A program made the position numbers and the translations under genes. Shown piece by piece: positions 29,495-44,969 of a stretch of 64,000 bases of DNA. Within the stretch, counting starts at the first letter, position 1. The number at the start of each line of letters is the position of its first letter. Location: positions 365,458 to 429,457 of the forward strand of contig OZ244961.1 of assembly GCA_965222715.1 (NCBI GenBank). The letters are read 5' to 3'. Source of the stretch: Minisyncoccota bacterium. GTDB taxonomy: Bacteria > Patescibacteriota > Minisyncoccia > Phycocordibacterales > JABMNX01. A model generated the notes under the pieces. It ran no database searches. It saw only the letters and a program-made list of their open reading frames with translations, and was not told the DNA's origin.

Positions 29495-30307
29495 TCACAG
29501 GACAAACGCAGAAGCAGATCCGTAGCGTTTGTAGACACGATCATACCAGCGGGTGCCAAACATAATACCACCTTCACCTCCACCGGTAATATAGAGCGGA
29601 GCATGAAAGAAATCGCCCCCAGAGTCTGGGTCATCGAACTCATCACCAGCACAATCCATATCCAACTCTTCCCAACGAACCAATCGATTGGGATGTGTCA
29701 AAATGATTGATCCGACAGCAAGTGCAGTAAGACCAAACTCGTTTGACAGAAAACACTCACGAGCTCGTCGAACTGATCGACCACGATGACGCATACCAAG
29801 TTGTGCTGGAACAACAAGGATATCTCCTGGCTGATTTTGAGCAATTATGTCGAGCGCGTGGGTCGTACGATTAGTTGTTCGCAAACGATCTGGAACAATC
29901 TGTCCATCACGGTAGCTGTACGCCTTTCGTGAATCAAAGATTTTCCCATACACAAGTCGGACCCCAGCACAGTAACGCTCAGTGTCGTCTGTGATGTTTG
30001 GGAAGAGTTTTTCAAGCGCTTTATGCGAGGGGATGGCAAACCAACCCTCTGCACCTTCAGGGAGCTTTGGTAAGTGTTCTACATACTCACGTGCGTCCTT
30101 AGGATCAAGGTTAAGAATTTGAGCAAGTATGGTTATCTGTTCCTTGATTGGTTTGGGACCACTGTACTCTGGCGGATACGTGTAGTTTGATTCCATTTCC
30201 TCAAGACTGACATCATTTTCGCCCCGAGGATCAGGAGATGCGGGTAACTCGTTATTCATGATTTTGATCTTTCCGTGTCTATACCTCAATGTCCTTAAAA
30301 GAAACAT
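29495..30307 (-). CDS. Hypothetical protein (270 aa), no recognisable family; GC slightly elevated (~48%)
   Basis: Long ORF with protein-like composition. Alternative start at MNNELPAS (30259). Confidence 0.5.
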   Translation of the reverse strand: MFLLRTLRYRHGKIKIMNNELPASPDPRGENDVSLEEMESNYTYPPEYSGPKPIKEQITILAQILNLDPKDAREYVEHLPKLPEGAEGWFAIPSHKALEKLFPNITDDTERYCAGVRLVYGKIFDSRKAYSYRDGQIVPDRLRTTNRTTHALDIIAQNQPGDILVVPAQLGMRHRGRSVRRARECFLSNEFGLTALAVGSIILTHPNRLVRWEELDMDCAGDEFDDPDSGGDFFHAPLYITGGGEGGIMFGTRWYDRVYKRYGSASAFVL

Positions 30308-30435: not shown

Positions 30436-31683
30436 ATGGAGGAAAGAGATCATAAGAAAATTGGCCCTGAGCTTGGGCTCTATTACATTGACCCGGTGGT
30501 CGGCAAAGGATTGCCGATGTTTTTACCTAAAGGAGCGACAATGAAACGTGTGCTCGAAGACTTTATTATTAAAGAAGAACTACGACGTGGATACTACCAT
30601 GTACACACCCCAGATATAGCAAAACTCGATTTGTATAAAAAATCAGGCCACTACCCTCATTACAAAGACTCAATGTATGCACCCATAGTCATTGATGACG
30701 AAGAGTTTATGCTTCGCCCAATGACGTGCCCCCACCACTTCCAAATGTACGCATCAAAACCGAGAAGCTACCGGGAACTGCCTATGCGTATCGCTGAATT
30801 AGCACAACTCTACCGATACGAACAATCAGGTGAATTGATGGGTCTCCAACGAGTGCGGACGTTCTGTCTTGCTGATGCACACATTATTTGTGCGTCAGAA
30901 GAACAAGCAATTGAAGAAATTAGTAAAGCGCTCGATCTTATTGAATATGTTGCGGGAGTATTTGGCCTCACGCTTAATACAGACTACCGATATCGATTAT
31001 CACTCGGGAGTAGAGACGATACAGAAGGTAAATACTATAAAAACGATGCTGCCTGGGAGAAAGGAGAAGAGCTCCTACGGTCTCTTATGCAGGATCGCGG
31101 ATGTGATTTTGAGGAAGCAAAAGATGAAGCGGCATTTTATGGTCCGAAAATTGATATTCAAATGAAAAATGTGAACGGAAAAGAAGATACTGCGTTTACC
31201 TGTCAGTATGACTTCTGTATGCCTGACAAGTTTGACTTAACCTATGTTGCTGAGGATGGAAGTAAGAAGCGTGCATTTGTAGTACACCGCTCATCAATTG
31301 GTGCCATTGAGCGCATTATGGCGTTTCTCATTGAGCACTATGCTGGTGCATTTCCCTTCTGGCTCTCTCCAGTTCAGGTAAAAATTTTACCTATTAGTGA
31401 TACACATGGAGAGTATGCACAGGAAGTAGCACAGACTCTTGAAGGACATGGGATACGCTCTGAGATTGATGAAAGTTCAGAGACACTTGGCAAGAAAATT
31501 AGAAGTGCGCAACTTGAGAAAGTTCCTTACTGGTTAGTTATTGGAGATCAAGAAGTCACAAAAAAAGAAGTGACCCTTGAAAGTCGAGACAGTGGAAAGA
31601 TTGGATCAATGCATGTTGAGGATCTCATTGCACGATTTACAGAGGAAAATATTCCAACTTCTTCACAACCTTCTTCACAATAG
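30436..31683 (+). CDS. thrS: Threonine--tRNA ligase, catalytic plus anticodon-binding domains only (no N-terminal TGS/editing domains)
   Basis: Starts at the DHRKIG-equivalent (DHKKIGPELGLY), RPMTCPHHFQMY motif 1/zinc site, class II motifs, C-terminal anticodon-binding domain. 415 aa versus ~640 for the full-length enzyme. Confidence 0.92.
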   Translation: MEERDHKKIGPELGLYYIDPVVGKGLPMFLPKGATMKRVLEDFIIKEELRRGYYHVHTPDIAKLDLYKKSGHYPHYKDSMYAPIVIDDEEFMLRPMTCPHHFQMYASKPRSYRELPMRIAELAQLYRYEQSGELMGLQRVRTFCLADAHIICASEEQAIEEISKALDLIEYVAGVFGLTLNTDYRYRLSLGSRDDTEGKYYKNDAAWEKGEELLRSLMQDRGCDFEEAKDEAAFYGPKIDIQMKNVNGKEDTAFTCQYDFCMPDKFDLTYVAEDGSKKRAFVVHRSSIGAIERIMAFLIEHYAGAFPFWLSPVQVKILPISDTHGEYAQEVAQTLEGHGIRSEIDESSETLGKKIRSAQLEKVPYWLVIGDQEVTKKEVTLESRDSGKIGSMHVEDLIARFTEENIPTSSQPSSQ

Positions 31684-31702
31684 ACTTTATGAGAGCTACA
31701 AA

Positions 31703-31728
31703 AAACGCCAAGGGTACTCTTGGCGTTT
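31703..31728. terminator. Intrinsic terminator, copy 3 of recurring palindrome
   Basis: aaaaacgccaagggtactcttggcgtttttt after thrS. Confidence 0.7.
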
Positions 31729-31755
31729 TTTGGTGCTCTGTTTAAGCGTTCTATA

Positions 31756-33120
31756 TTACCCTTTCTTTTCTTTCACAAACTCAACTGCCCGGAGAAGTGC
31801 CATCTTTGCACTCGTGTGTTGGGTAAGATAATTTTGATCAACACCACTTGAAAGAATATGTACTAGTCGCTCTATGTCTTTACTTCCCCAATTCTCGAAA
31901 TAGTCTTCAATTGACTCGTCTTTCAGTGTTTCCTCTTCCCCAAGTCGTCGTGCATGTAATCTATCAAGTTCGCACAATGCTGAGACTAATACTTCTGATA
32001 TATTGCGACCTTTTTCTTTAAATGAACGAACTACACGCAAAACCCCTTCTATATCTCCACGAACAATTGTTCGAATAAGTTCTGTTGTATGTGAAGCAGA
32101 TGGTGATACCTCGTATGTAGGTTCCTGAACTTTTTCCTGAGGTATAGTGTTTTGTGTTTCTGTGCTCGTATTAGATATAGGACGTGACACCTTTCCAGCA
32201 CGATGTAACTCAAGTACTGGCATTTTCCCGTCAGCACCTACTTTTAATTCGAGTGAATCATGCATAGCAGCAGTTGAGTGTGTGAAAGGAGAAGAAGGAG
32301 TGTACTCTACATCCTTTGAAGTTACCGTTTCTGCAACATCATCATGTCGTCCTTCATGTTCGTATATAGGTGCCTGGGTGTTCGCCGTAAATAGGTAAGC
32401 AAACACGTTATACATACGCGCACCAAATCGTCGAGTTACCAAAAAGTATGCAAGAACTCCACTCCAAAGGATAAGCATGAACCAGTAAAGAGTAGCGAGA
32501 AATGTTCCTGCTTTAAAACCAGTATACGGTACTTGGCTGAGTGTAATAAACGAGAGTGGTTGCGCGTCAGCACCAGGGAGTGCACTTACACTTACTGTTG
32601 GAGAATTTAATCCTCCTGGTCCCCCCGTACCTCCTGGACCACCAGTTGGAGTTGGGTCAGGTGTTGGGTCAGGATCAGGTGTGGGATCAGGGGTCGGATC
32701 CGGGTCTGGAGTGGGGTCAGGTGTTGGGTCGGGAGTAGGACTTGGTGTTGGACTAGGTGTTGGGCTTGGACTAGGAGATGAGCCACCACCGTCACTACCA
32801 CCATCACTAGAAGAACCGTTGTCATTTCCAGCACCAGTTCCACCACCAAAACCACCTCCACTACTTCCACCAGATGAACCGTTGTCATTTCCAGCACCAG
32901 TTCCACCACCAAAACCACCTCCATCACCGCCTCCACCTCCATCACCGCCTCCACCTCCGTCACCTCCAGCACCATCACCGCCACCGAAGGCATAGATTAC
33001 GTGACTGATATTGCTGGTAGGAACGGTTATAAGAGAAAAAAGCACAATACACACAATAAGGAAAATTGCTTTTTGGGGTGTAGATATATGCTTGTAATGT
33101 TTCTTTTTTAAGTTACTCAT
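31756..33120 (-). CDS. Membrane-anchored surface protein with Gly/Ser-rich and Pro-Thr/Pro-Asp repeat linker, second TM segment and ~260-aa C-terminal domain
   Basis: N-terminal signal-anchor. GGGDGAGGDGGGGG..., 21-aa tandem repeat GGGFGGGTGAGNDNGSS..., SPSPTPSPTPDPTPDP tract. Start set at MSNLKKK. Confidence 0.6.
   Translation of the reverse strand: MSNLKKKHYKHISTPQKAIFLIVCIVLFSLITVPTSNISHVIYAFGGGDGAGGDGGGGGDGGGGGDGGGFGGGTGAGNDNGSSGGSSGGGFGGGTGAGNDNGSSSDGGSDGGGSSPSPSPTPSPTPSPTPDPTPDPTPDPDPTPDPTPDPDPTPDPTPTGGPGGTGGPGGLNSPTVSVSALPGADAQPLSFITLSQVPYTGFKAGTFLATLYWFMLILWSGVLAYFLVTRRFGARMYNVFAYLFTANTQAPIYEHEGRHDDVAETVTSKDVEYTPSSPFTHSTAAMHDSLELKVGADGKMPVLELHRAGKVSRPISNTSTETQNTIPQEKVQEPTYEVSPSASHTTELIRTIVRGDIEGVLRVVRSFKEKGRNISEVLVSALCELDRLHARRLGEEETLKDESIEDYFENWGSKDIERLVHILSSGVDQNYLTQHTSAKMALLRAVEFVKEKKG
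32600..32960. repeat. Low-complexity tandem repeats inside surface-protein gene (12-18-bp PT/PD-encoding periodicity; 63-bp unit x2; 18-bp unit x2)
   Basis: gaaccgttgtcatttccagcaccagttccaccaccaaaaccacctcca at 32813 and 32876; atcaccgcctccacctcc x2. Confidence 0.7.
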
Positions 33121-33198
33121 AACTACTTCAAATATAAAAAGGAGGGTGGGCGGTGTAAGCCACACCACCACTCCAAAAGTTCTTCGCGATACTCGACG

Positions 33199-34416
33199 TT
33201 ACAGACAGTCGAGGATGGCGTTCAAGTTCGCACCCTCGCTACTGCTACTCCGAGCCAAGATAGCGAGCTCACTCGGACTGTTACCCCCTGAGCCAAGTCG
33301 AGTACTCAGAAGACGAACACCACTGCTGTCCACTCGTGGATACATAACCTGACAACCGTTACCTGAGGCGTCCTTCATGAGAAACTGAGAGTCTTGTTGA
33401 CTTGCTGCTTCTCGAGAGACCGTCCGCTCCCAGTATACCAGATTCGGATGCTCCGAATGGTCTCCAGGTGACGCAGAAGCTGCCTCCCACCCACTCGAAC
33501 TCGGATAGTTCACCTGGAACTGAACCGAGGTAGAGACGGTGGTTGCACTTCCCCTCCCGTCGTCATAAGCAGCCATCAGTTCGCCATCCAGGTCACGCGA
33601 GACCGCCCCGTCCTCAAACGGATACGTCTCATTCCCTTCTTGCGAGTTGACTTCACGAATCCGAGCTTGGAGTGCCGCAGGAATTGAATCCCATTCCCAG
33701 AAACGAATTCTGAGAACATACGGATCATCCACTGCGGTGCTCGCGGTCTGGACCGGAGCTGCCGTCTGCGCCACCGGTTGAGCCGGGGGTTCTGCCGCCG
33801 TCGAAGTGCTTTGCGACCCCTCGACGTAAAACGCCCAGTTGTCACAGATATGCGGTCGAACGAGCACCCACGTTTGACCTTGGTGCTCGACGCGATACAC
33901 GTCGGCCGTCCGGTCATACGTCTGCGCCCAATCGCCCATCACGACATTCGTCCAGAGACGATGGGTGTTCAGTTGAGAACTCCACATCATCCCAGAGAAT
34001 TTCGTTCCCGGAACGAGCTGTTCGACAGAGGGGTTACTCCCCTTGATTAGTTCACGCCATTTGTCGTGAACTGCGGAAGGTACATTGCAACGATCCTTGA
34101 GAATGTGAAGCGCGTAGGCCACACTCCCTTGGTAGGGATGCGCACCAGGGCGCACCCAGTTGTTGTTCCTCGTTGAAGTGCAGGTGTCGACAGCGGACGT
34201 CGTCCGTTGCGGCACACCACCTACGGTTTCCGCTTGGGTTTCCACCTGGGCCGGCGCGCTGCTGGCGATCTGCGGGGGCGATTGGGTTGCCTCGGGTTCG
34301 ACATGACATTCGCCGATACCGACACAGCCGTTCATGTCCCCGTCACCGAGGTTTATGGCGCATGCTCCCAAAACAATCGGGAGAAACACCCACACAAGGC
34401 GAAGACGTTTGATCAT
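33199..34416 (-). CDS. Putative secreted lipoprotein of foreign origin (GC ~57%, GC3-rich codons), function unknown
   Basis: Signal peptide MIKRLRLVWVFLPIVLGAC (lipobox-like LGAC). 405-aa ORF. All other frames show only short ORFs typical of high-GC sequence. Confidence 0.55.
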   Translation of the reverse strand: MIKRLRLVWVFLPIVLGACAINLGDGDMNGCVGIGECHVEPEATQSPPQIASSAPAQVETQAETVGGVPQRTTSAVDTCTSTRNNNWVRPGAHPYQGSVAYALHILKDRCNVPSAVHDKWRELIKGSNPSVEQLVPGTKFSGMMWSSQLNTHRLWTNVVMGDWAQTYDRTADVYRVEHQGQTWVLVRPHICDNWAFYVEGSQSTSTAAEPPAQPVAQTAAPVQTASTAVDDPYVLRIRFWEWDSIPAALQARIREVNSQEGNETYPFEDGAVSRDLDGELMAAYDDGRGSATTVSTSVQFQVNYPSSSGWEAASASPGDHSEHPNLVYWERTVSREAASQQDSQFLMKDASGNGCQVMYPRVDSSGVRLLSTRLGSGGNSPSELAILARSSSSEGANLNAILDCL

Positions 34417-34542
34417 TGTGCTAGCCCCTCCTTAGGGCTTGTTGTGAACACGATGTGAAAGAACTACTCTCTAACTGATGCTACCTACTACTACCTAAGC
34501 GCAACACAGAGAGCTACGCACGCACAATCCTTCCTTATAACC

Positions 34543-35196
34543 TTATGAGTTATTTTGGATTGTAAGCGCATAGCTTCCTACGTATACTGCCTCTACCACA
34601 TATCGCTCACTCTCAGCACCAAATGAGTTACAGGTTGAGAGCGTAAGTTTTCGCTTCCCTTCTTCAAAATTAACACGAACTACATCTGCTTCAGCAAGTT
34701 CAAGACTCTCTACTCGATACACATATCGAGTGGTATATGAATCTACAAAGACCTCATCTCCAACCTCAACGTTTTTTAAACCATTAAACGCTTGGTAATT
34801 TTTATTTATCACGTTTGGCAAAAAACTTGAGTGCCCGAAAATAAAAATATTTGTCTCTTCGTTAAGCAGTCCCGTTCCTGGGTACTGTACTACCCCATCT
34901 TGAAGTGCCTGATCAAGAACAGTGATATCACGACTCTCTGGGTGCTCAATGTTTATATCAATCGAAACTGATGGGATGCGTATATGTACTGCTTGTTCGT
35001 ACATTGTGTTCTCTTTTGAGTCTGATTGGGGGTAATTACTCGCAAGAGCAGCTGTTGTGTTATTTCCTGTATACTCTGGTACAAAATCAACAAGTGAAAG
35101 TACCAAGTATGAACAAAAGAAAATACAAAGAAACCATACCAGAAATCGCCATCGATTCTCGATAAGAAATAGTATGCTTTCTTTTATATCTTCCAT
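34543..35196 (-). CDS. Sortase-family transpeptidase
   Basis: N-terminal TM anchor. Catalytic His (IFIFGHSSF) and TLxTC motif (KLTLSTCNS), conserved Arg downstream. Confidence 0.8.
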   Translation of the reverse strand: MEDIKESILFLIENRWRFLVWFLCIFFCSYLVLSLVDFVPEYTGNNTTAALASNYPQSDSKENTMYEQAVHIRIPSVSIDINIEHPESRDITVLDQALQDGVVQYPGTGLLNEETNIFIFGHSSFLPNVINKNYQAFNGLKNVEVGDEVFVDSYTTRYVYRVESLELAEADVVRVNFEEGKRKLTLSTCNSFGAESERYVVEAVYVGSYALTIQNNS

Positions 35197-35368
35197 ATAT
35201 GTCCCGACCGTGACGCCGTGATGACCATCTTTATAAACTACGTATTTCTACACTATTTTAAAGATTTTGTCAAGTTTCTTTTAAATTATGTTATCACCCC
35301 CACCACCTCTCCGTGGGTCACCTACACTTCTTGACAAAAATCTTTATGTGTGATACACATATATCGTT

Positions 35369-36148
35369 ATGATACAGCGTTTTAAAGAAAATTTTAATAC
35401 AGAAGCAGGCGCACGAACAAAAGACATGTTTGTTCGCAGTCTCGCTGTTATTGGCTTTTTTGCCATTCTCTTTGTAGGACTATGGGGTACGGTGCAAGTA
35501 GTAAAAGTTGCACCTCAGGCATTTTCAACTCTTGCTGCGGTAACCACATCCCTTACTCAAACCTTCTTCTCTGCTGATACCGAAGAAGGGCAAGAAGGGA
35601 ATGCTGAAGAGGCTTCTTCTTCAAATCAAACTGAAGAAAGTACTACTCCAAATGAAAACGTGAGTGGAAATGAGGAAAATACTCAAGGAACAGCACAAGC
35701 ACTTACTCCTGGAGAGCGAGTTGATAACGTATTCCCTATTAACGATAGTCGAGCGCCATCAAACCCAAATGGTGAACCAGATCTTGTGGCTCGTATTCTT
35801 TCCGTTGGTGAAATAAATAGTGCTGGTGTATTTGTTCCAAAAGATAGTATTACTGTTGGCAACAAAGGAGCCGTGATGTTTGAAGTACAAAACAACGGAA
35901 CAAAAACATCTGATACCTGGGTATTTAATGCAGTGCTACCAACCTTCCCTATGCACATTTTCCACTCACAAACCCAACAAGCACTAAACCCCGGTGAGAA
36001 AATTCAATATACCCTTGGTTTTGACCAAATTGATTACAATAAAAAAGAAGGTGTAGTTACTATTAATGTAGACCCCGCTGGAAGTATGAAAGAGTCAAAT
36101 GAAAATAACAACATTGCTCAGCGGGTGTTAAAAATCATTTCAAATTAA
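35369..36148 (+). CDS. Membrane-anchored protein with C-terminal CARDB-like (cell-adhesion-related) beta-sandwich domain
   Basis: N-terminal TM; acidic linker. C-terminal domain with PDLVARILSVGE...VGNKGAVMFEVQNNGT...NPGE...NENNN pattern typical of CARDB. Confidence 0.6.
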   Translation: MIQRFKENFNTEAGARTKDMFVRSLAVIGFFAILFVGLWGTVQVVKVAPQAFSTLAAVTTSLTQTFFSADTEEGQEGNAEEASSSNQTEESTTPNENVSGNEENTQGTAQALTPGERVDNVFPINDSRAPSNPNGEPDLVARILSVGEINSAGVFVPKDSITVGNKGAVMFEVQNNGTKTSDTWVFNAVLPTFPMHIFHSQTQQALNPGEKIQYTLGFDQIDYNKKEGVVTINVDPAGSMKESNENNNIAQRVLKIISN

Positions 36149-36166
36149 AGCAACGTATAGATATTT

Positions 36167-36196
36167 AAAAACACCAAGCTAACCCTTGGTGTTTTT
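36167..36196. terminator. Bidirectional intrinsic terminator after CARDB gene
   Basis: aaaaacaccaag-ctaac-ccttggtgttttt. Confidence 0.6.
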
Positions 36197-36203
36197 TAAT
36201 ATA

Positions 36204-38663: not shown

Positions 38664-38797
38664 ATTCTGTATTTTGTGTGAGCGCAAAATTAAAAAGGAG
38701 TGCTGTTTCCTTACTCATTATTTTAGCAAAAAACCCCTGATATATCCAGTGATTTTGGGGATTATGAGCCTCTTCAGGTGGCTCTGTAGAGCCGTAA

Positions 38798-38823
38798 TAA
38801 ACGCCAAGGGTACTCTTGGCGTT
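38798..38823. terminator. Intrinsic terminator, copy 4 of recurring palindrome (overlaps pheT stop codon)
   Basis: aataaacgccaagggtactcttggcgtttatt. Confidence 0.7.
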
Positions 38824-38825
38824 TA

Positions 38826-41228
38826 TTATCGCACCTCGTAACCCTCAGTATTGTTAAGTGCTGTGGTCACTCGCTCCATAGCTTCATGTATTTCCTCATC
38901 TGAGAGTGTTTTTTCAGGCGACTGGAAGACAAGACGAAAGGCATAGGACACTCTACCGTCCTTTTTAAACTCATCAAATAATGTATGTTGCACTAGTAGG
39001 TCTCCAGCAGTATTAGTAATTGTTGTAAGTACGTCATTCCCACTCACACTCTCTGGTACCCATACTGCAATATCTCGAAGGGCAAATGGATAGATTGAAA
39101 ATGGTGTATACGTGTAGGTACTCTTATCAATTGTCGCACTATAGTCGTGTGGTTCAGGTAGTGATTCCACTACTGCATCGAAATTGCACTCATACACTCC
39201 GTTAGTCACTTTTCCGTCAGGCATCCCAAACTCTTCTTTGAGATCAGCAACAATACTTTCTAGAACTTCCTGCTTTGAAGTTGTTATACCAAGTGACATA
39301 TGTTCACTGGTATTGGTAAAGACTGTTCCTAATTCAAACAAGGAAATTGTGTTAGCACTAAACAATGGTATATTTTTTACATTTAGTTCAAGAGACTGTG
39401 TGAGTCCAGTAACAAGAGAGGGTCTAAGATATTTTTTGTCACTTGCGATTGGGTTCTCAATTTCTACTTCCCCACTATCTTGAAGTGCATAGGTATACAC
39501 TTCAGTAAAGCCACGATTGGTTAAAAATTCTCGCACCTTTTCAGCGTAGTAGAATCGCTTATTCACTGACACTTTTTTCTCACTTGTAGGTGACTGCTCT
39601 GCGACTATATTTCCATAACCATAAATGCGTCCAATTTCTTCAATAAGATCCTCTTTATTACCACTTGTGAGAAAACTAGTGTGAGCGACCAAATCAAGTC
39701 GTTCAAATGGAATAGAAACCACATACCGATCCTCTGCATCCATCATTCTTCGGTATCCGACAATATTTTTAAAGTACGCACTCTCTTCAATCTTCTCTTC
39801 GATAACCCCCTCTTTTGTTGCAGCGTGGAGCACCCGATCGTCACCGAGGTATATACCACAGTGAGATACTCCACCTTCTACCACCGTGCCCGAGAGAAAC
39901 TCTTGTGTCTTTTCCTGTGCGCCAGTGTGTACCACCTCTTCACCATCACTCAGCCGAGTGAACGAGTGTTCTTTTTTTGTTCCAACACCATTTGTTGAAA
40001 ATATAACGTCACCAGGCTTACGTTCTGATTCAATGATCGGAGTACCGTAAATATATTGATCAATAGCAATACGTGGAAGTGAGATGCCAGCTTGCGCAAA
40101 TACATACGCAACAAAGGACGAACAATCAAACGCATGTGGTGCATTATACGAGATGCTAGCACCATACTTATACGGGGTACTAACGTACGTTTGTGCAACT
40201 TCAATGACCTTAGATGCTGGCACTACTTTTTCAAATGGGAATGTGAGTCGTGCAAAGATATCTTCAATGGCTGATTCAGATATAGTAGTCCCAAGAAGAC
40301 TGTTCACCTCATTACATGAGACTCCTGACTTATATTCAATAGTTTTTTGAAGTGGAAACTCATCTACGATTCCTTCAACTGTACCACCAGCTATCTCAAG
40401 TATTAATGTAACCACCTCGGCTAATCCGTACCGAGCATATTCAGGCGCTATGCCGTTTTCAAATCGAGTTGAGGCGTCGGTACGAAGTTTTAATTCTTGA
40501 GACGTTTTGCGTATACTTGAACCTTTAAAGTTAGCAGCTGAGATAACAACAGAGGTGGTGTCTTTTGTAAGCTCAGCTTGTGTTCCACCTTTTATCCCAG
40601 CAATATCGAGAACAGCACCACTATGACTATCTGCAAGCACCATCATTCCTTCTCTAAGCGAATACTCCTCACCACCAAGTAAACTGATCTTTTCTTCTTC
40701 TTTTGCTGATCGAATAATGATACCTACACTCCCCTCTTTTTCAGTTAATTTATCGGCATCAAAGGCGTGCGTTGGTTGGCCGAGTCCCAACATAACGTAA
40801 TTTGTTGCGTCAACAATGTTGTTAATTGAACGTTGTCCAAGTGTAGTAAGACGTTCTTGTAGCCACTGGGGAGAGTCTTTTACAACAACACCTGTGATGA
40901 GCGCTGCGGTATGTCTTGGTGCGTTAATATGATCATTAATCGAGAGAGTGAGTTTCTTTGAATGAGGAAACTCTTTATATGATTCTCGTAACACATCTTT
41001 TTTTAATGGAAGCTTAAAAAGTACTGAGCACTCTTTTGCAATTCCTCTATGTGAAAGACAGTCATGAGCACGGTTTGGTAATACATCAATGTCTAAAACT
41101 GAGTCGTCACCAACAGTCTCAACGCCTTCAACCTCAAATGAATGAAAGGTGAGCTTTTCTGCAACTTCCTCGGGTGAAGGTAGTGGTGTATCAAAATATG
41201 TTTGTAGCCAGTTGTAACTTACTTTCAT
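38826..41228 (-). CDS. pheT: Phenylalanine--tRNA ligase beta subunit lacking the B2 OB domain and carrying an inserted NlpC/P60-type Cys-His domain between B5 and the catalytic-like domain
   Basis: B1 (MKVSYNWLQTYF), B3/B4 (ATNYVMLGLGQPTHAFDADKL), B5, then PYKYGAS...FDCSSFVAYVF...HCGIYLGDDRVLHA (NlpC/P60 hallmarks), then IPFERLDLVAHTS...EEIGRIYGYGNI and C-terminal FDX-ACB domain. Confidence 0.93.
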   Translation of the reverse strand: MKVSYNWLQTYFDTPLPSPEEVAEKLTFHSFEVEGVETVGDDSVLDIDVLPNRAHDCLSHRGIAKECSVLFKLPLKKDVLRESYKEFPHSKKLTLSINDHINAPRHTAALITGVVVKDSPQWLQERLTTLGQRSINNIVDATNYVMLGLGQPTHAFDADKLTEKEGSVGIIIRSAKEEEKISLLGGEEYSLREGMMVLADSHSGAVLDIAGIKGGTQAELTKDTTSVVISAANFKGSSIRKTSQELKLRTDASTRFENGIAPEYARYGLAEVVTLILEIAGGTVEGIVDEFPLQKTIEYKSGVSCNEVNSLLGTTISESAIEDIFARLTFPFEKVVPASKVIEVAQTYVSTPYKYGASISYNAPHAFDCSSFVAYVFAQAGISLPRIAIDQYIYGTPIIESERKPGDVIFSTNGVGTKKEHSFTRLSDGEEVVHTGAQEKTQEFLSGTVVEGGVSHCGIYLGDDRVLHAATKEGVIEEKIEESAYFKNIVGYRRMMDAEDRYVVSIPFERLDLVAHTSFLTSGNKEDLIEEIGRIYGYGNIVAEQSPTSEKKVSVNKRFYYAEKVREFLTNRGFTEVYTYALQDSGEVEIENPIASDKKYLRPSLVTGLTQSLELNVKNIPLFSANTISLFELGTVFTNTSEHMSLGITTSKQEVLESIVADLKEEFGMPDGKVTNGVYECNFDAVVESLPEPHDYSATIDKSTYTYTPFSIYPFALRDIAVWVPESVSGNDVLTTITNTAGDLLVQHTLFDEFKKDGRVSYAFRLVFQSPEKTLSDEEIHEAMERVTTALNNTEGYEVR

Positions 41229-41239
41229 ATATTCTGTAT

Positions 41240-41980
41240 TTAAAACTGATTTACAAACCGTAAGTCACCTGTGTGAAAGAGACGTGTGTCATCAATACCG
41301 TACTTGAGCATACCGAGCCTCTCAACCCCAGTACCAAACGCAAACCCCTGCCACTCTTTCGGGTTAATACCTGAGCTCTCAAGCACCTTAGGGTGAACCA
41401 TTCCTGCTCCCATGATCTCAATCCACTTATCACGCAAACGGTCAGGCGCACTGTCTCCCACAAGGCGCATATCAATCTCAACACCTGGTTCAACAAATGG
41501 GAAGTAACTGGGGCGGAGACGCACCTCCACATCACTTCCAAAAAATTTCTCAAAGAATGTTTCAAGGACACCCTTAAGAGTTGCAAGTGTCACATCTTTT
41601 CCAATCATCAAACCTTCAACTTGATAAAACTGTGCTTCATGTGTCATATCAGTTGCCTCGTGTCGATACACCTTACCAGGGGCGATGATACGAATTGGAG
41701 GTTCGTGTTTTTCCATGTAGCGCACCTGCACGGGGCTGGTGTGGGTGCGGAGGAGTTTTTTTGCATTAAGTGGTTTAAGCCAAAAAGTATCCCACATGTC
41801 ACGTGCTGGGTGATTCTGAGGAACATTCAAAGTGTCAAAATTGTAATATTCTGTCTCAATTTCAGGCCCTTCTGCAAATTCAAACCCCATCTCACGAAAA
41901 ATCGCGTTTATCTCGCGGATCATTCTAGTTATTGGGTGAATGTGTGCTTGAGCCGTGCTCTCCTCAGTCATATTGCTCAA
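41240..41980 (-). CDS. pheS: Phenylalanine--tRNA ligase alpha subunit (short, catalytic core only)
   Basis: Class II motifs: NHPARDMWDTFW, FRPSYFPFVEPGVEID, AFGTGVERL. 246 aa. Confidence 0.92.
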   Translation of the reverse strand: MSNMTEESTAQAHIHPITRMIREINAIFREMGFEFAEGPEIETEYYNFDTLNVPQNHPARDMWDTFWLKPLNAKKLLRTHTSPVQVRYMEKHEPPIRIIAPGKVYRHEATDMTHEAQFYQVEGLMIGKDVTLATLKGVLETFFEKFFGSDVEVRLRPSYFPFVEPGVEIDMRLVGDSAPDRLRDKWIEIMGAGMVHPKVLESSGINPKEWQGFAFGTGVERLGMLKYGIDDTRLFHTGDLRFVNQF

Positions 41981-44636: not shown

Positions 44637-44640
44637 ACCT

Positions 44641-44725
44641 TGAGCCACCTGTCAGACTCGAACTGACGACCTACTCATTACAAGTGGTTCGAAGTTAGGC
44701 ACTTCTCACCTCCACCAACTGAGCC
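44641..44725 (-). pseudogene. tRNA-Thr-derived fragment: D-arm-like segment + 30-nt insert + exact copy of 3' half of tRNA-Thr, CCA end corrupted
   Basis: 45-bp direct repeat of 44728-44772 at 44642-44686. Ends GGCTCAAGG instead of GGCTCCA. Confidence 0.5.
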
Positions 44726-44801
44726 TGGAGCCACCTGTCAGACTCGAACTGACGACCTACTCATTACAAGTGAGTTGCTCTACCAACTGAGCTAAGGTGG
44801 C
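44726..44801 (-). tRNA. tRNA-Thr (anticodon UGU), CCA encoded
   Basis: GCCACCTTAGCTCAGTTGGTAGAGCAACTCACTTGTAATGAGTAGGTCGTCAGTTCGAGTCTGACAGGTGGCTCCA. 7-bp acceptor stem pairs perfectly. D, anticodon (loop CTTGTAA) and T arms (TTCGAGT loop) fold canonically. Confidence 0.85.
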
Positions 44802-44839
44802 GTATATACTTTTTTTCTTTAACACAACCTAAGCTATTC

Positions 44840-44914
44840 CAGCGAGACAACTCACTTGTAACAAGTGGTTCGAAGCTATTCGCTTCTCACCTCTACCAAC
44901 TGAGCTAAGGTGGC
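44840..44914 (-). pseudogene. tRNA-Thr-derived fragment: leader + 5' acceptor + D-arm identical to tRNA-Thr, followed by rearranged non-tRNA sequence
   Basis: ATATACGCCACCTTAGCTCAGTTGGTAGAG shared with intact tRNA. Then GTGAGAAGCGAATAGCTTCGAACCACTTGTTACAAGTGAG. Shares GTGAGAAGYG...CTTCGAACCACTTGT with the other fragment. Confidence 0.5.
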
Positions 44915-44969
44915 GTATATTTCTGCTTTAACCTTCTACCACCTTGATAGGTGATCTATTGAAGTGTGC

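Follow-up and report, generated by a model that had tools for sequence, protein, structure and literature searches.

The 64-kb stretch of DNA analysed here (the window, 64,000 nucleotides) exceeds 45% GC in only one 2-kb bin, at 32–34 kb, which raises the question of how a single gene came by a composition so unlike that of its surroundings. The gene (hereafter the target) is a CDS for a 405-aa lipoprotein on the minus strand (33199..34416, ATG start). Its overall GC is 57.0%, with GC1/2/3 of 0.613/0.502/0.594, while the 48 other window ORFs of at least 120 aa have a mean GC of 0.421 (sd 0.022) and a mean GC3 of 0.329 (sd 0.046), placing the target at z = 6.6 for GC and 5.8 for GC3. An earlier note on this DNA had singled out the same ORF as ~57% GC and GC3-rich relative to the other window genes, which the measured values (GC 0.570, GC3 0.594, z ~6) confirm, and had read it as a likely horizontal acquisition. 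Judged by composition, the target does look like a recently acquired island gene: the z values of 6.6 and 5.8 are accompanied by an RSCU correlation with the host of r = 0.03.

Third codon positions account for ~60% of the GC excess, second positions for 30% and first positions for 10%. From the protein sequence and host codon usage a GC3 of 0.328 would be expected, against the observed 0.594 (z = 12.2); amino-acid composition is thereby ruled out as the source of the excess. GTC (0.33 versus 0.10 in the host), ACG (0.48 versus 0.11) and GCC (0.17 versus 0.09) are enriched as the earlier note had stated, whereas CGC, which it had also listed, is not (0.13 versus 0.15). The largest shifts concern CCG (0.58 versus 0.11), ACA (0 versus 0.38) and CCA (0.04 versus 0.51). 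The 5′ composition boundary is sharp and lies at ~34438, just upstream of the Shine-Dalgarno motif. An equally abrupt step had been described at the 3′ end; here GC3 alone drops, and total GC stays high as far as ~32550 because the downstream neighbour has a Gly/Pro-rich repeat (54–56% GC). As GC3 is merely 0.267 in this neighbour, the synonymous anomaly ends at the target stop codon.

Several simple causes were considered and rejected. Alternative ORFs within the target are only 83–113 aa long, as expected in GC-rich DNA, which argues against an antisense or overlapping reading-frame constraint. Cumulative GC skew is monotonic over the window, so that a replication origin or terminus effect does not apply; no avoidance of ACA (MazF-type) or of other short motifs was found beyond codon usage; and a search for an embedded RNA gene in the target gave no Rfam match. 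Classical translational selection was likewise dismissed, as the window genes for S16, L25, EF-Ts, RpoB and RpoC have a GC3 of 0.29–0.34 and lack the shift at 4-fold sites described below.

The surroundings of the target are not those of a genomic island. The flanks consist of housekeeping genes (GyrB, PheST, ThrRS, DnaE) in conserved synteny, and the word island, used in the earlier note, is a misnomer. The gene order around the position of the target (the slot) is GyrB, a CARDB-like gene, a sortase, the target, a large sortase-substrate-like protein, ThrRS and DnaE. The sortase (34543..35196, minus strand; PF04203, E = 5e-21; synteny) lies immediately upstream and marks the conserved left boundary of the slot. 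The downstream neighbour (31756..33120, minus strand) forms the conserved right edge, so that the target does lie, as first described, in the same orientation between a repeat-rich protein and a sortase. This neighbour starts with an N-terminal TM segment, followed by Gly-rich and Pro/Thr/Asp-rich repeats, an invariant LSQ[VI]PYTG (32518–32541), a TM helix with basic residues and a conserved cytoplasmic helical domain; it is probably the sortase substrate, with LSQ[VI]PYTG, the TM helix and the basic residues as its candidate sorting signal. Beyond it, an inverted repeat with a perfect stem and T-runs after it on both strands (31685..31746, assigned to neither strand) is likely to act as a bidirectional terminator, closing both the sortase–lipoprotein–substrate unit and the convergent ThrRS gene; a simple terminator scan made no call at this position. 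On the other side, a membrane-anchored CARDB-domain protein (35369..36148, plus strand; PF07705, E = 6e-7; synteny) is divergently transcribed and is a conserved member of the cluster. Two copies of a repeat family, D3, were seen at 36158–36197 and 38788–38827.

We found orthologues of the target in the same slot in 11 other lineages, at 29–38% identity and in hosts of 37–58% GC. One relative is labelled Candidatus Pacebacteria, and the clade with this slot lies within the Patescibacteria/CPR bacteria. The slot gene is present in loci L001–L007, L009–L011, L013 and L014, which is not the patchy distribution of an island gene. Flanking proteins are far better conserved (GyrB 72–87%, PheS ~90% and DnaE 73% identity), and the contrast between 29–38% for the target and 72–87% for GyrB marks the target as a long-standing resident that evolves fast. 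Its GC3 lies above that of its own host in 12 of 12 lineages, by +0.106 to +0.375 (+0.27 in the window), and within its own locus it ranks first in 10 lineages and second in two. With amino-acid sequence and host codon usage controlled, the per-locus GC3 z values are 4.2–12.2. As homologues of one another, the 11 orthologues do not count as fully independent, although saturation has been reached at their synonymous sites. The offset of the window gene falls within the spread of its relatives (t = 0.8, p = 0.46, 11 comparison loci). When seven loci were available, the window had appeared to be a significant outlier above a constant family offset (p ~0.002); this status was lost when four more were added, since L013 and L014 equal or surpass the window. 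Pure exchange of alleles between lineages of different GC was also rejected as an explanation, since GC-rich hosts never show a negative offset (12/12 positive). In L009 the slot holds three genes, one of them unrelated, with GC3 values of 0.52, 0.40 and 0.44 in a host at 0.23–0.31.

These observations bear directly on the idea that a foreign gene arrived recently from a GC-rich donor outside the clade's kin and was inserted in a surface-protein island of low GC. An atypical composition, the coincidence of the synonymous anomaly with the gene boundaries and the lack of a Pfam annotation for the target all agree with it, but the same position is occupied by orthologues in 11 other lineages of the clade, the GC excess is common to all of them, and the two-domain family is confined to the sortase/substrate synteny wherever the context is visible. 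Around the target there are no mobility genes or flanking repeats, neither an integrase nor an att-like repeat, and the nearest tRNA, the sole one in the window, is 10 kb away. No phage, plasmid or viral-contig homologues of the target were found. We regard such an insertion as highly improbable. GC-rich homologues in relatives, which the earlier note itself held would speak against acquisition, occupy the same slot and are each GC3-enriched over their own host; with 12 of 12 slot homologues enriched and no mobility genes, horizontal acquisition as the explanation of the GC content is mostly unsupported. The donor lineage that a protein search was expected to reveal did not appear: in databases of 5.8 billion and 1.8 billion proteins, nothing came closer to the target than 38–42% identity. 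Profile searching of the larger database contributed P0020 alone, a scan of genome contigs returned only the L002 contig again, and a metagenome scan returned only L009. Diversification by a DGR or template repeat was rejected too, as no part of the target is repeated within 25–45 kb and no RT is found among the annotated neighbours; Avd-like genes occur in L001 and L011 and are absent from the window.

The composition step, taken by itself, would also suit an assembly chimera in which a GC-rich segment of another co-assembled organism was joined into the contig. The earlier note had favoured integration into the cell-envelope locus over a chimera, and this holds: 11 further assemblies, each independent (NCBI, ENA, JGI, Logan), have the same gene order, so that a member of the family is expected at this position. 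The source contig measures 617 kb, GC-richer relatives differ too much in their flanks (GyrB 72–87% at the protein level) for a graph cross-over, and the window shares its 5′UTR and Shine-Dalgarno motif with L002 and L014. A chimera is very unlikely, and of all the accounts weighed here we give it the least credence.

To what kind of protein does this composition belong? The signal peptide (34360..34416, minus strand, as for all features of the protein) contains the sequence MIKRLRLVWVFLPIVLGAC, which puts a Cys at position 19 and fits the lipobox [LVI][ASTVIG][GAS]-C. The lipobox-like LGAC reported earlier is therefore sound; Cys19 is the predicted lipidated residue, and the Cys is preceded by a conserved [AGS][AG] in ~15 of 17 aligned family members. 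Residues 20–79 (34180..34359) form a low-complexity, predicted disordered stalk (pLDDT <50 for residues 14–74) that differs in length and sequence among orthologues. The N-domain (residues 80–200; 33817..34179) comprises two helices and an antiparallel sheet, with invariant residues W87, P188, C191 and N193, and also occurs alone or fused to LysM. An Ala/Pro/Gln-rich inter-domain linker (residues 201–229; 33730..33816) leads to the C-domain (residues 230–405; 33202..33729), which carries the motifs RFWEWDSIP, GAVSRDL and NLNxILDC and the invariant cysteines C355 and C404, and which is also found alone in secreted proteins of ~190 aa. From this predicted order of lipobox Cys, stalk, N-domain, linker and C-domain we infer a membrane-anchored lipoprotein with a role at the surface.

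Pfam holds no model that matches either globular domain in any family member, in agreement with the earlier description of a domain of unknown function. Neither Foldseek against the PDB nor a profile search against PDB sequences gave a match, and the N-domain has no solved structural neighbour. It does match the first ~110 positions of NF038119, weakly and repeatedly (P0003, E = 1e-7; P0037, E = 1e-6), and thus appears distantly related to the N-terminal part of the ‘MHFG family PEP-CTERM proteins’. Membership is a different matter, as scores of 19.7 bits (P0001) and 32.5 bits (P0003) compare with a 100-bit cut-off and the PEP-CTERM tail is absent. The C-domain has weak CnaB/transthyretin-like beta-sandwich similarity; the combination of a clear structural match, a sortase signal and isopeptide-forming residues that defines a CnaB-type pilin or adhesin domain was not found in the target. 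The family also lacks an LPXTG-type sorting signal: its members end in a conserved NLNxILDC(P/L) and lack both a TM segment and a basic tail, and the target itself ends in ...NLNAILDCL.

The two domains have separate histories. P0001 groups with P0002 as a clade in 100% of the bootstraps for the N-domain and in 0% of those for the C-domain, the C-domain of P0002 falling instead with those of P0016, P0018 and P0020 at 88%. This conflict between the trees shows that intragenic recombination has taken place and that alleles are mosaic, and the linker is likely to be the joint between N- and C-domain allele classes. In amino-acid composition the window protein is the most GC-type member of the family, standing at the extremes in Arg/(Arg+Lys) (0.79, p = 0.005) and in FYMINK (0.156, p = 0.012). 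Together with the domain mosaicism, its Arg/Lys usage makes replacement by the allele of a GC-richer relative a possible contributor, and part of the GC excess in the window may come from recombination or from the import of an allele.

Taken as the main cause, such an in-situ allelic (xenologous) replacement would mean that a lineage of 42% GC took up the allele of a clade member of 50–58% GC, which was then partly ameliorated, on top of the family-wide offset. The domain mosaicism shows that alleles move, the nearest housekeeping relatives (L001 and L005) have 51% GC, and GC1 in the window equals that of orthologues in the GC-richest hosts with GC3 below theirs, as amelioration predicts. The window allele, with its r of 0.03 to its own host, reaches an RSCU correlation of r = 0.45–0.51 with relatives of 51–58% GC, whereas all other orthologues correlate with their own hosts, but these correlations are confounded by GC3. 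Similarly, the GC-normalised dinucleotide delta* is 83 to L001 and 93 to L005 against 125 to its own genome, a value that is nevertheless within the null (78 ± 34). The extremes in Arg/(Arg+Lys) and FYMINK point the same way; against them stand the ordinary GC3 offset of the window (p = 0.46) and the searches of 5.8 billion and 1.8 billion proteins, which yielded no close allele. Moreover, the closest N-domain to that of the window (66% identical) comes from a low-GC host, L003, and exchange exactly at the gene ends needs near-identical flanks and hence a donor of similar GC. Finally, L013 has an equally large GC3 offset with a host-like amino-acid composition, so that a force on synonymous sites can yield such offsets without import. 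On balance we consider replacement unlikely as the principal explanation.

What acts on the synonymous sites is indicated by their strand asymmetry. The GC3 excess is synonymous, with G- and C-ending codons up and A-ending codons down the most. At 4-fold sites, the slot genes are shifted by +1.20 in ln(G/A), +0.66 in ln(C/T) and +0.51 in ln(T/A) (p = 3e-6), in 11 of 11 loci; the gain of G over A is roughly double that of C over T. A strand-symmetric process, be it GC-biased gene conversion (gBGC) or import, would not give rise to a shift of this kind. An advantage of RNA that can pair with itself would favour it. The two neighbours that presumably share the transcript of the target, the sortase and the downstream gene, do not carry this 4-fold signature.

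Folding energies agree with a role of the RNA. Compared with shuffles that preserve protein, codon usage and dinucleotides, slot genes have a mean z of -4.37 (-2.3 to -7.7, n = 11) and 27 controls a mean of -0.44 (sd 1.23; Mann-Whitney p = 2e-6). The excess remains when regional GC3 is preserved by block-restricted shuffles (p = 0.001), and patchiness of GC3 and junction dinucleotides, controlled in this way, were discarded as sources of an artefact. All three genes in the L009 slot have excess mRNA structure. The window copy has the weakest signal but one (z ~-2.5), and ThrRS, a control gene in the window, reaches a similar z of -2.9 in the block-restricted test. In the window target the excess lies almost wholly in the half that encodes the N-domain, where the most structured stretch of the mRNA, predicted to contain an 83-nt hairpin, spans 120 nt (33817..33936, minus strand) at -53 kcal/mol, 15.8 kcal/mol below synonymous shuffles. 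A specific conserved hairpin was looked for and not found, the structures differing between the window and L001/L005. Mean dMFE is -4.12 kcal/mol for the sense and -3.24 kcal/mol for the antisense strand, with sense the stronger in nine of 11 loci (p = 0.05–0.08); since this difference is only marginal, a cause at the DNA level may also be at work.

These data weigh on a further explanation, in which the slot is a hypervariable surface-antigen locus and recombination hotspot, and heteroduplex repair raises GC in every lineage through gBGC. Intragenic recombination is demonstrated by the conflicting domain trees, the slot content is replaceable (L009), and the GC3 offset has the same sign in 12 of 12 hosts regardless of host GC. 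In addition, recombination has been found to go together with GC3 across bacteria (Lassalle et al., 2015, PMC4450053), a point that we counted in favour of gBGC, and the target likewise recombines and has a GC3 above its genome, independently of optimal codons. The slot gene departs from that pattern in that A is depleted more than T, folding is in excess, the magnitude is much larger and the effect is confined to coding sequence. Because gBGC is strand-symmetric, it does not explain why the coding strand is depleted of A more than of T at every locus, nor does it predict folding energies below those of composition-preserving shuffles. Spacers in the slot are inconsistently GC-elevated (slightly in the window, L002, L006 and L009; not in L001, L003, L004 and L005), and the flanking sortase and substrate genes, the would-be anchors of recombination, show no elevation. 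Recombining and non-recombining bacterial genes reportedly differ by a few GC3 points, and the slot offsets of 11–37 points are far larger. We therefore doubt that gBGC is the main driver.

Initiation signals add to the picture. A perfect Shine-Dalgarno motif, AGGAGG, lies 10 nt upstream of the ATG (34427..34432, minus strand), and among 47 window genes the target alone has this 6/6 match, even when alternative starts are allowed. Six of 12 orthologues score 6/6 and four score 5/6, and the 5′UTR motif CCT(C)AAGGAGGGGC around the Shine-Dalgarno is common to the window, L002 and L014. The uniquely strong motif gives indirect support to the proposed long half-life of the mRNA and high abundance of the protein.

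Our preferred reading, in which we place about as much confidence as doubt, is that the target is a resident slot lipoprotein made GC-rich by selection on its transcript, its high GC being no sign of a recent foreign origin. The gene would be the vertically inherited occupant of the slot between the sortase gene and that of its probable substrate; its protein evolves very fast, with the two domains reshuffled between lineages, and high GC would be a conserved property of whatever gene fills the slot. Synonymous sites are pushed to G and C and away from A, with U kept, and the mRNA, whose Shine-Dalgarno is unusually strong, folds in the predictions into more pairs than its composition would give. 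Such selection would most likely operate via mRNA stability and/or translation pacing and would stem from abundant production of the surface protein. From these patterns we infer high expression, a role in host interaction and, as the trait under selection, the stabilisation of the mRNA. The Arg/Lys extreme, the FYMINK depletion and a dinucleotide signature near that of relatives with 51% GC count against this reading, as they suit an imported allele at least equally well. So do the weak structure signal of the window copy and the absence of the 4-fold signature from the sortase and the downstream gene.

A bolder extension, which we offer tentatively and think improbable, is that the slot is a clade-wide ‘structured cassette slot’ in which any occupant, even an unrelated one as in L009, becomes GC-rich, A-poor and hyper-structured. 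If so, nucleic-acid structure could have a position-specific function inside the operon, stabilising the mRNA internally or pacing translation and so setting how much of a major surface protein is made relative to its neighbours; alternatively, at the DNA level, hairpin-prone sequence could help cassettes and domains to be exchanged where episymbionts diversify their surface. The N-domain would also represent a new fold common to exosortase-sorted and LysM-fused envelope proteins.

A sharp GC step at the ends of a gene is routinely read as horizontal transfer, a reading that here is wrong or at best incomplete, as the anomaly is an inherited and maintained property of the locus. Bacteria of the CPR/Patescibacteria lead a life attached to other cells, with surface proteins of which little is known. 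The cluster of CARDB protein, sortase, lipoprotein and sortase-substrate-like protein is conserved beside core replication and translation genes; the target, among the fastest-evolving and most peculiar genes of this neighbourhood, thus qualifies as a candidate gene for a major exposed protein that serves to contact or evade the host. If selection on the transcript is the correct reading, the slot would be a natural case of synonymous-site selection for mRNA structure that shifts the GC of a gene by 15 points, repeated over hosts of 37–58% GC and hence tractable for separating selection, gBGC and transfer. To our knowledge, no earlier description exists of an mRNA-structure effect that stays with a single chromosomal slot throughout a clade.

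The target family can be compared with several known systems. As in bacterial lipoproteins of the Lgt/LspA pathway, its signal peptide runs from a basic n-region through a hydrophobic core to a lipobox that ends in Cys, and like the abundant surface lipoproteins of wall-less and monoderm bacteria it places a flexible stalk before extracytoplasmic globular domains with conserved cysteines. Exposed antigens are typically fast-evolving with mosaic alleles, as is this family. Unlike known lipoproteins, its two globular domains lack a Pfam model and its N-domain a solved structural neighbour. NF038119 proteins and CnaB sortase-assembled pilins are surface proteins handled by sorting enzymes, and a sortase adjoins the target; anchoring of the target is nevertheless predicted to proceed via the lipobox and not, as in CnaB pilins, via sortase, given that PEP-CTERM and LPXTG signals are absent.

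At the level of the transcript, the parallel is with selection for structure in coding regions that raises functional half-life and output, as shown in eukaryotic cells (Mauger et al., 2019, PMC6883848). The slot gene similarly has G/C-rich, A-poor synonymous sites, folds below its shuffles and carries a strong initiation signal; it differs in that the effect is a predicted one and that the bacterial decay machinery is not the same. At the level of the locus, the closest parallel is with O-antigen and capsule loci, which are hypervariable, flanked by conserved genes and persistently atypical in GC. The slot shares with them a fixed position, divergent or replaced contents (L009), a persistent non-host composition and the shuffling of alleles. 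O-antigen and capsule loci are typically GC-poor, comprise many genes and are explained by inter-species transfer, whereas the slot gene is GC-rich, with a positive offset that tracks host GC, a strand-asymmetric shift and excess mRNA structure.

The open reading frame singled out in the earlier note exists as described (33199–34416, 405 aa); it lies on the minus strand and starts at ATG, and its composition is indeed atypical of the window. Its GC content is 0.570, compared with a mean of 0.421 ± 0.022 for the other 48 window ORFs (z = 6.6), and its GC3 is 0.594, compared with 0.329 ± 0.046 (z = 5.8). At a resolution of 2-kb bins, this region is the only one in the 64-kb window with GC above 45%. 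The amino-acid sequence of the protein and the codon usage of the window predict a GC3 of 0.328 (z = 12.2), which rules out protein composition as the source and shows that the anomaly is synonymous. The GC step had been described as abrupt at both ends. This holds for the 5′ edge, which is sharp (~34438), but not for the 3′ side, where a Gly/Pro repeat in the downstream gene keeps total GC high. With a GC3 of only 0.267, this downstream gene does not share the synonymous anomaly, which ends at the stop codon of the lipoprotein gene. In the protein, the proposed lipobox, LGAC, ends a signal peptide (residues 1–19) and is conserved in the family; residues 20–79 and 201–229 form disordered, variable segments, the latter linking an N-domain (residues 80–200) to a C-domain (230–405).

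The gene is flanked by a sortase gene (PF04203; 34543–35196) and, downstream, by the gene of a 455-aa repeat-rich membrane protein (31756–33120). All three share an orientation, as noted earlier, lie on the minus strand and are followed by a hairpin/T-run inverted repeat (31685–31746). A CARDB-domain protein gene is transcribed divergently next to this cluster. Further out lie housekeeping genes, those for GyrB, PheT and PheS to one side and those for ThrRS and DnaE to the other, so the cluster is not the "island" previously envisaged, and no flanking repeats, integrase or adjacent tRNA were found around the gene.

The lipoprotein has no sortase signal. In its downstream neighbour, the motif LSQ[VI]PYTG (32518–32541), invariant among the orthologues of that protein, lies mid-protein. 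Gly-rich (GGGxGAGNDN) and Pro/Thr/Asp repeats precede it on the N-terminal side; a transmembrane helix and basic residues come after it, succeeded by a cytoplasmic domain of ~230 aa that is helical and conserved. The neighbour is more likely than the lipoprotein to be the sortase substrate. The motif resembles a sortase signal, and cutting there would leave behind a cytoplasmic fragment still anchored in the membrane. A 40-nt hairpin, AAAAACGCCAAGGGTACTCTTGGCGTTTTTT, recurs with variants at gene ends (31692–31731, 36158–36197 and 38788–38827). These copies have the look of related intrinsic terminators that would act in both directions; a simple terminator scan of 31500–35500, which covers only the first copy, did not call it.

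Several features of the surrounding synthetase and tRNA genes were also observed. The window ThrRS (30436–31683, plus strand) has only 415 aa, lacks the tRNA_SAD editing domain of its 582–593-aa orthologues and is only 44–49% identical to them, while they share 71–85% among themselves. The space of the missing N-terminus is filled by a 270-aa ORF on the opposite strand (29495–30307, minus) with no family match and a somewhat raised GC of 0.467; this region may represent a second replaced gene beside the lipoprotein locus. PheT (phenylalanyl-tRNA synthetase beta; 38826–41228, minus) carries an NlpC/P60 cell-wall peptidase-type domain inserted around residues 351–470, which is present in the related loci L001, L004, L005 and L011 and absent from L014. 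The adjacent PheS (41240–41980, minus) is about 90% identical to those of L001 and L005, PheT only 56–58%. The GC3 of PheS, 0.437, is the second-highest among well-supported window genes and is also raised in L001 (0.643) and L005 (0.679). Between PheS and PheT, L001 (2973–3329) and L011 (2433–2789) have a 118-aa bAvd/23S-rRNA-IVP family gene that is absent from the window; the L001 copy is clearly GC-poor (0.389 vs 0.51), and no reverse transcriptase was seen near either. Finally, tRNA-Thr(UGU) (44726–44801) lies between two tRNA-like copies (region 44638–44920, minus) that match its 5′ or 3′ half in segments of 98–100% identity and carry a ~25-nt insertion after the D-arm. ARAGORN and Rfam called only the central tRNA in this region; the flanking copies may be duplicates that contain an intron or have decayed.

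The lipoprotein family is tiny, with only 8 matches among 5.8 billion clustered proteins and 49 among 1.84 billion representative proteins, many of them single-domain. No relatives were found in the viral contigs, phages and plasmids searched. We compared synteny for the two-domain members with readable contigs (L001–L007, L010, L011/L012, L013 and L014) and for L009, where the relative is C-domain-only. Gene order was identical at all compared loci: GyrB, CARDB-like (opposite strand), sortase, lipoprotein, large neighbour, ThrRS, DnaE. Identity across loci is only about 29–38% for the lipoprotein, compared with 72–87% for GyrB, about 90% for PheS and 73–74% for DnaE. This combination of shared synteny and low identity between conserved flanks identifies the gene, by sequence comparison, as old, resident and very fast-evolving.

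The earlier note had read the GC excess as likely horizontal acquisition, against which homologues of the same GC in relatives would speak. Homologues enriched in GC3 over their hosts occupy the same slot between sortase and repeat-rich neighbour, and recent acquisition is not supported as the cause of the excess: in 12 of 12 lineages (host GC 37–58%), GC3 of the slot gene lies above the rest of its locus, with offsets of +0.106 to +0.375. The slot gene ranks first in its locus in ten cases and second in two, and each locus is significant alone (z = 4.2–12.2) once the protein sequence and the codon usage of the host are taken into account. The first seven comparison loci fell on a very tight line (r = 0.99), above which the window appeared as an outlier; this impression was dropped once four more loci were included (predicted 0.530, observed 0.594, p = 0.46). 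Two offsets exceed that of the window, in L014 (10001–11218; 0.778 vs 0.404 in the host, +0.375) and in L013 (3836–4996; 0.506 vs 0.214, +0.29). In L009 (5726–8594, contig VAPL010357890.1), three genes fill the slot. One encodes a 423-aa membrane protein unrelated to the family, another a lipoprotein remnant of 178 aa, and the third a homologue that comprises the C-domain only and has a signal peptide of its own. GC3 is raised in each of them (0.52, 0.40 and 0.44 vs 0.23–0.31 in neighbours), so the elevation is a property of the slot as well as of the lipoprotein family.

The use of GC-rich codons reported earlier was borne out in part, with ACG at 0.48 compared with 0.11 in the host, and CGC not enriched (0.13 vs 0.15). 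A-ending codons drop most, and both G- and C-ending ones increase (CCG 0.58 vs 0.11 in the host, ACA 0 vs 0.38, CCA 0.04 vs 0.51). Over 11 loci, the log-odds shifts are +0.82 (C/T) and +0.52 (G/A) in two-fold pyrimidine- and purine-ending codons, and +0.66 (C/T), +1.20 (G/A) and +0.51 (T/A; 11/11 loci, p = 3e-6) at four-fold sites. The coding strand thus loses A more than T, which makes the process strand-asymmetric. Neither GC-biased gene conversion nor import from a GC-rich donor, both of which are strand-symmetric, explains this asymmetric part of the shift. No similar codon shift was found in the operon neighbours or in the highly expressed window genes S16, L25, EF-Ts, RpoB and RpoC.

RNA base-pairing capacity favours more G and C with U kept and A lost, and we therefore compared folding energies in 120-nt windows with those of synonymous shuffles. 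With a simple codon shuffle, slot genes had z values of −2.5 to −8.2 (mean −5.1), compared with an average of −0.8 for 18 controls. When shuffles also had to match the dinucleotide counts exactly, along with protein and codon usage, the average was −4.37 (range −2.3 to −7.7) vs −0.44 ± 1.23 for 27 controls (Mann–Whitney p = 2e-6). The three L009 genes scored −2.6, −5.0 and −3.2, and L014 gave the strongest signal (about −7.7 to −9.4). The excess remained in 30-codon-block shuffles that preserve regional GC3 (p = 0.001). The window gene has one of the weaker signals (z about −2.5, comparable to the window control ThrRS), and its excess lies almost entirely in the N-domain half, where an element at 33817–33936 folds at −53 kcal/mol. 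The sense excess is only marginally larger than the antisense (p = 0.05–0.08), and no specific hairpin conserved across orthologues was found. A perfect AGGAGG Shine–Dalgarno lies 10 nt 5′ of the ATG; none of the other 46 window genes has a 6/6 match, even when every in-frame start among the first 60 codons is considered, and 10 of 12 orthologues match at 5/6 or 6/6. The motif around it, CCT(C)AAGGAGGGGC, is common to the window, L002 and L014.

Compared with family member P0002 (L003), the window protein has 66% identity in the N-domain but only 27% in the C-domain, the latter being the lowest of 16 comparisons. In neighbour-joining bootstraps, the window protein and P0002 group together in every N-domain replicate (100%) and in no C-domain replicate (0%); the P0002 C-domain groups with P0016, P0018 and P0020 (88%), and the P0016 N-domain is placed elsewhere. 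These conflicting groupings point to alleles reshuffled at the inter-domain linker and, at the level of sequence, demonstrate inter-allelic recombination in the family. Import of the window allele is a possible addition to, and not the main cause of, the GC excess. Its RSCU correlates with relatives of 51–58% GC (r = 0.45–0.51) and not with its own host (r = 0.03), although GC3 confounds this test, and in dinucleotide signature L001 and L005 are closer to it than its own genome is, although delta* between gene and host falls inside the null. Arg/(Arg+Lys) is the family's highest (0.79, p = 0.005) and FYMINK its lowest (0.156, p = 0.012); however, L013 combines an equally large GC3 offset with host-like amino-acid composition, the window offset is unexceptional and the databases hold no donor-like allele.

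In the best-supported reading, the gene encodes a surface lipoprotein that is conserved, diversifies rapidly and is probably highly expressed, and that likely acts at the cell surface or in contact with the host. Selection would act on its transcript for a structured coding sequence, rich in G+C and poor in A, the selected trait presumably being mRNA stabilisation.
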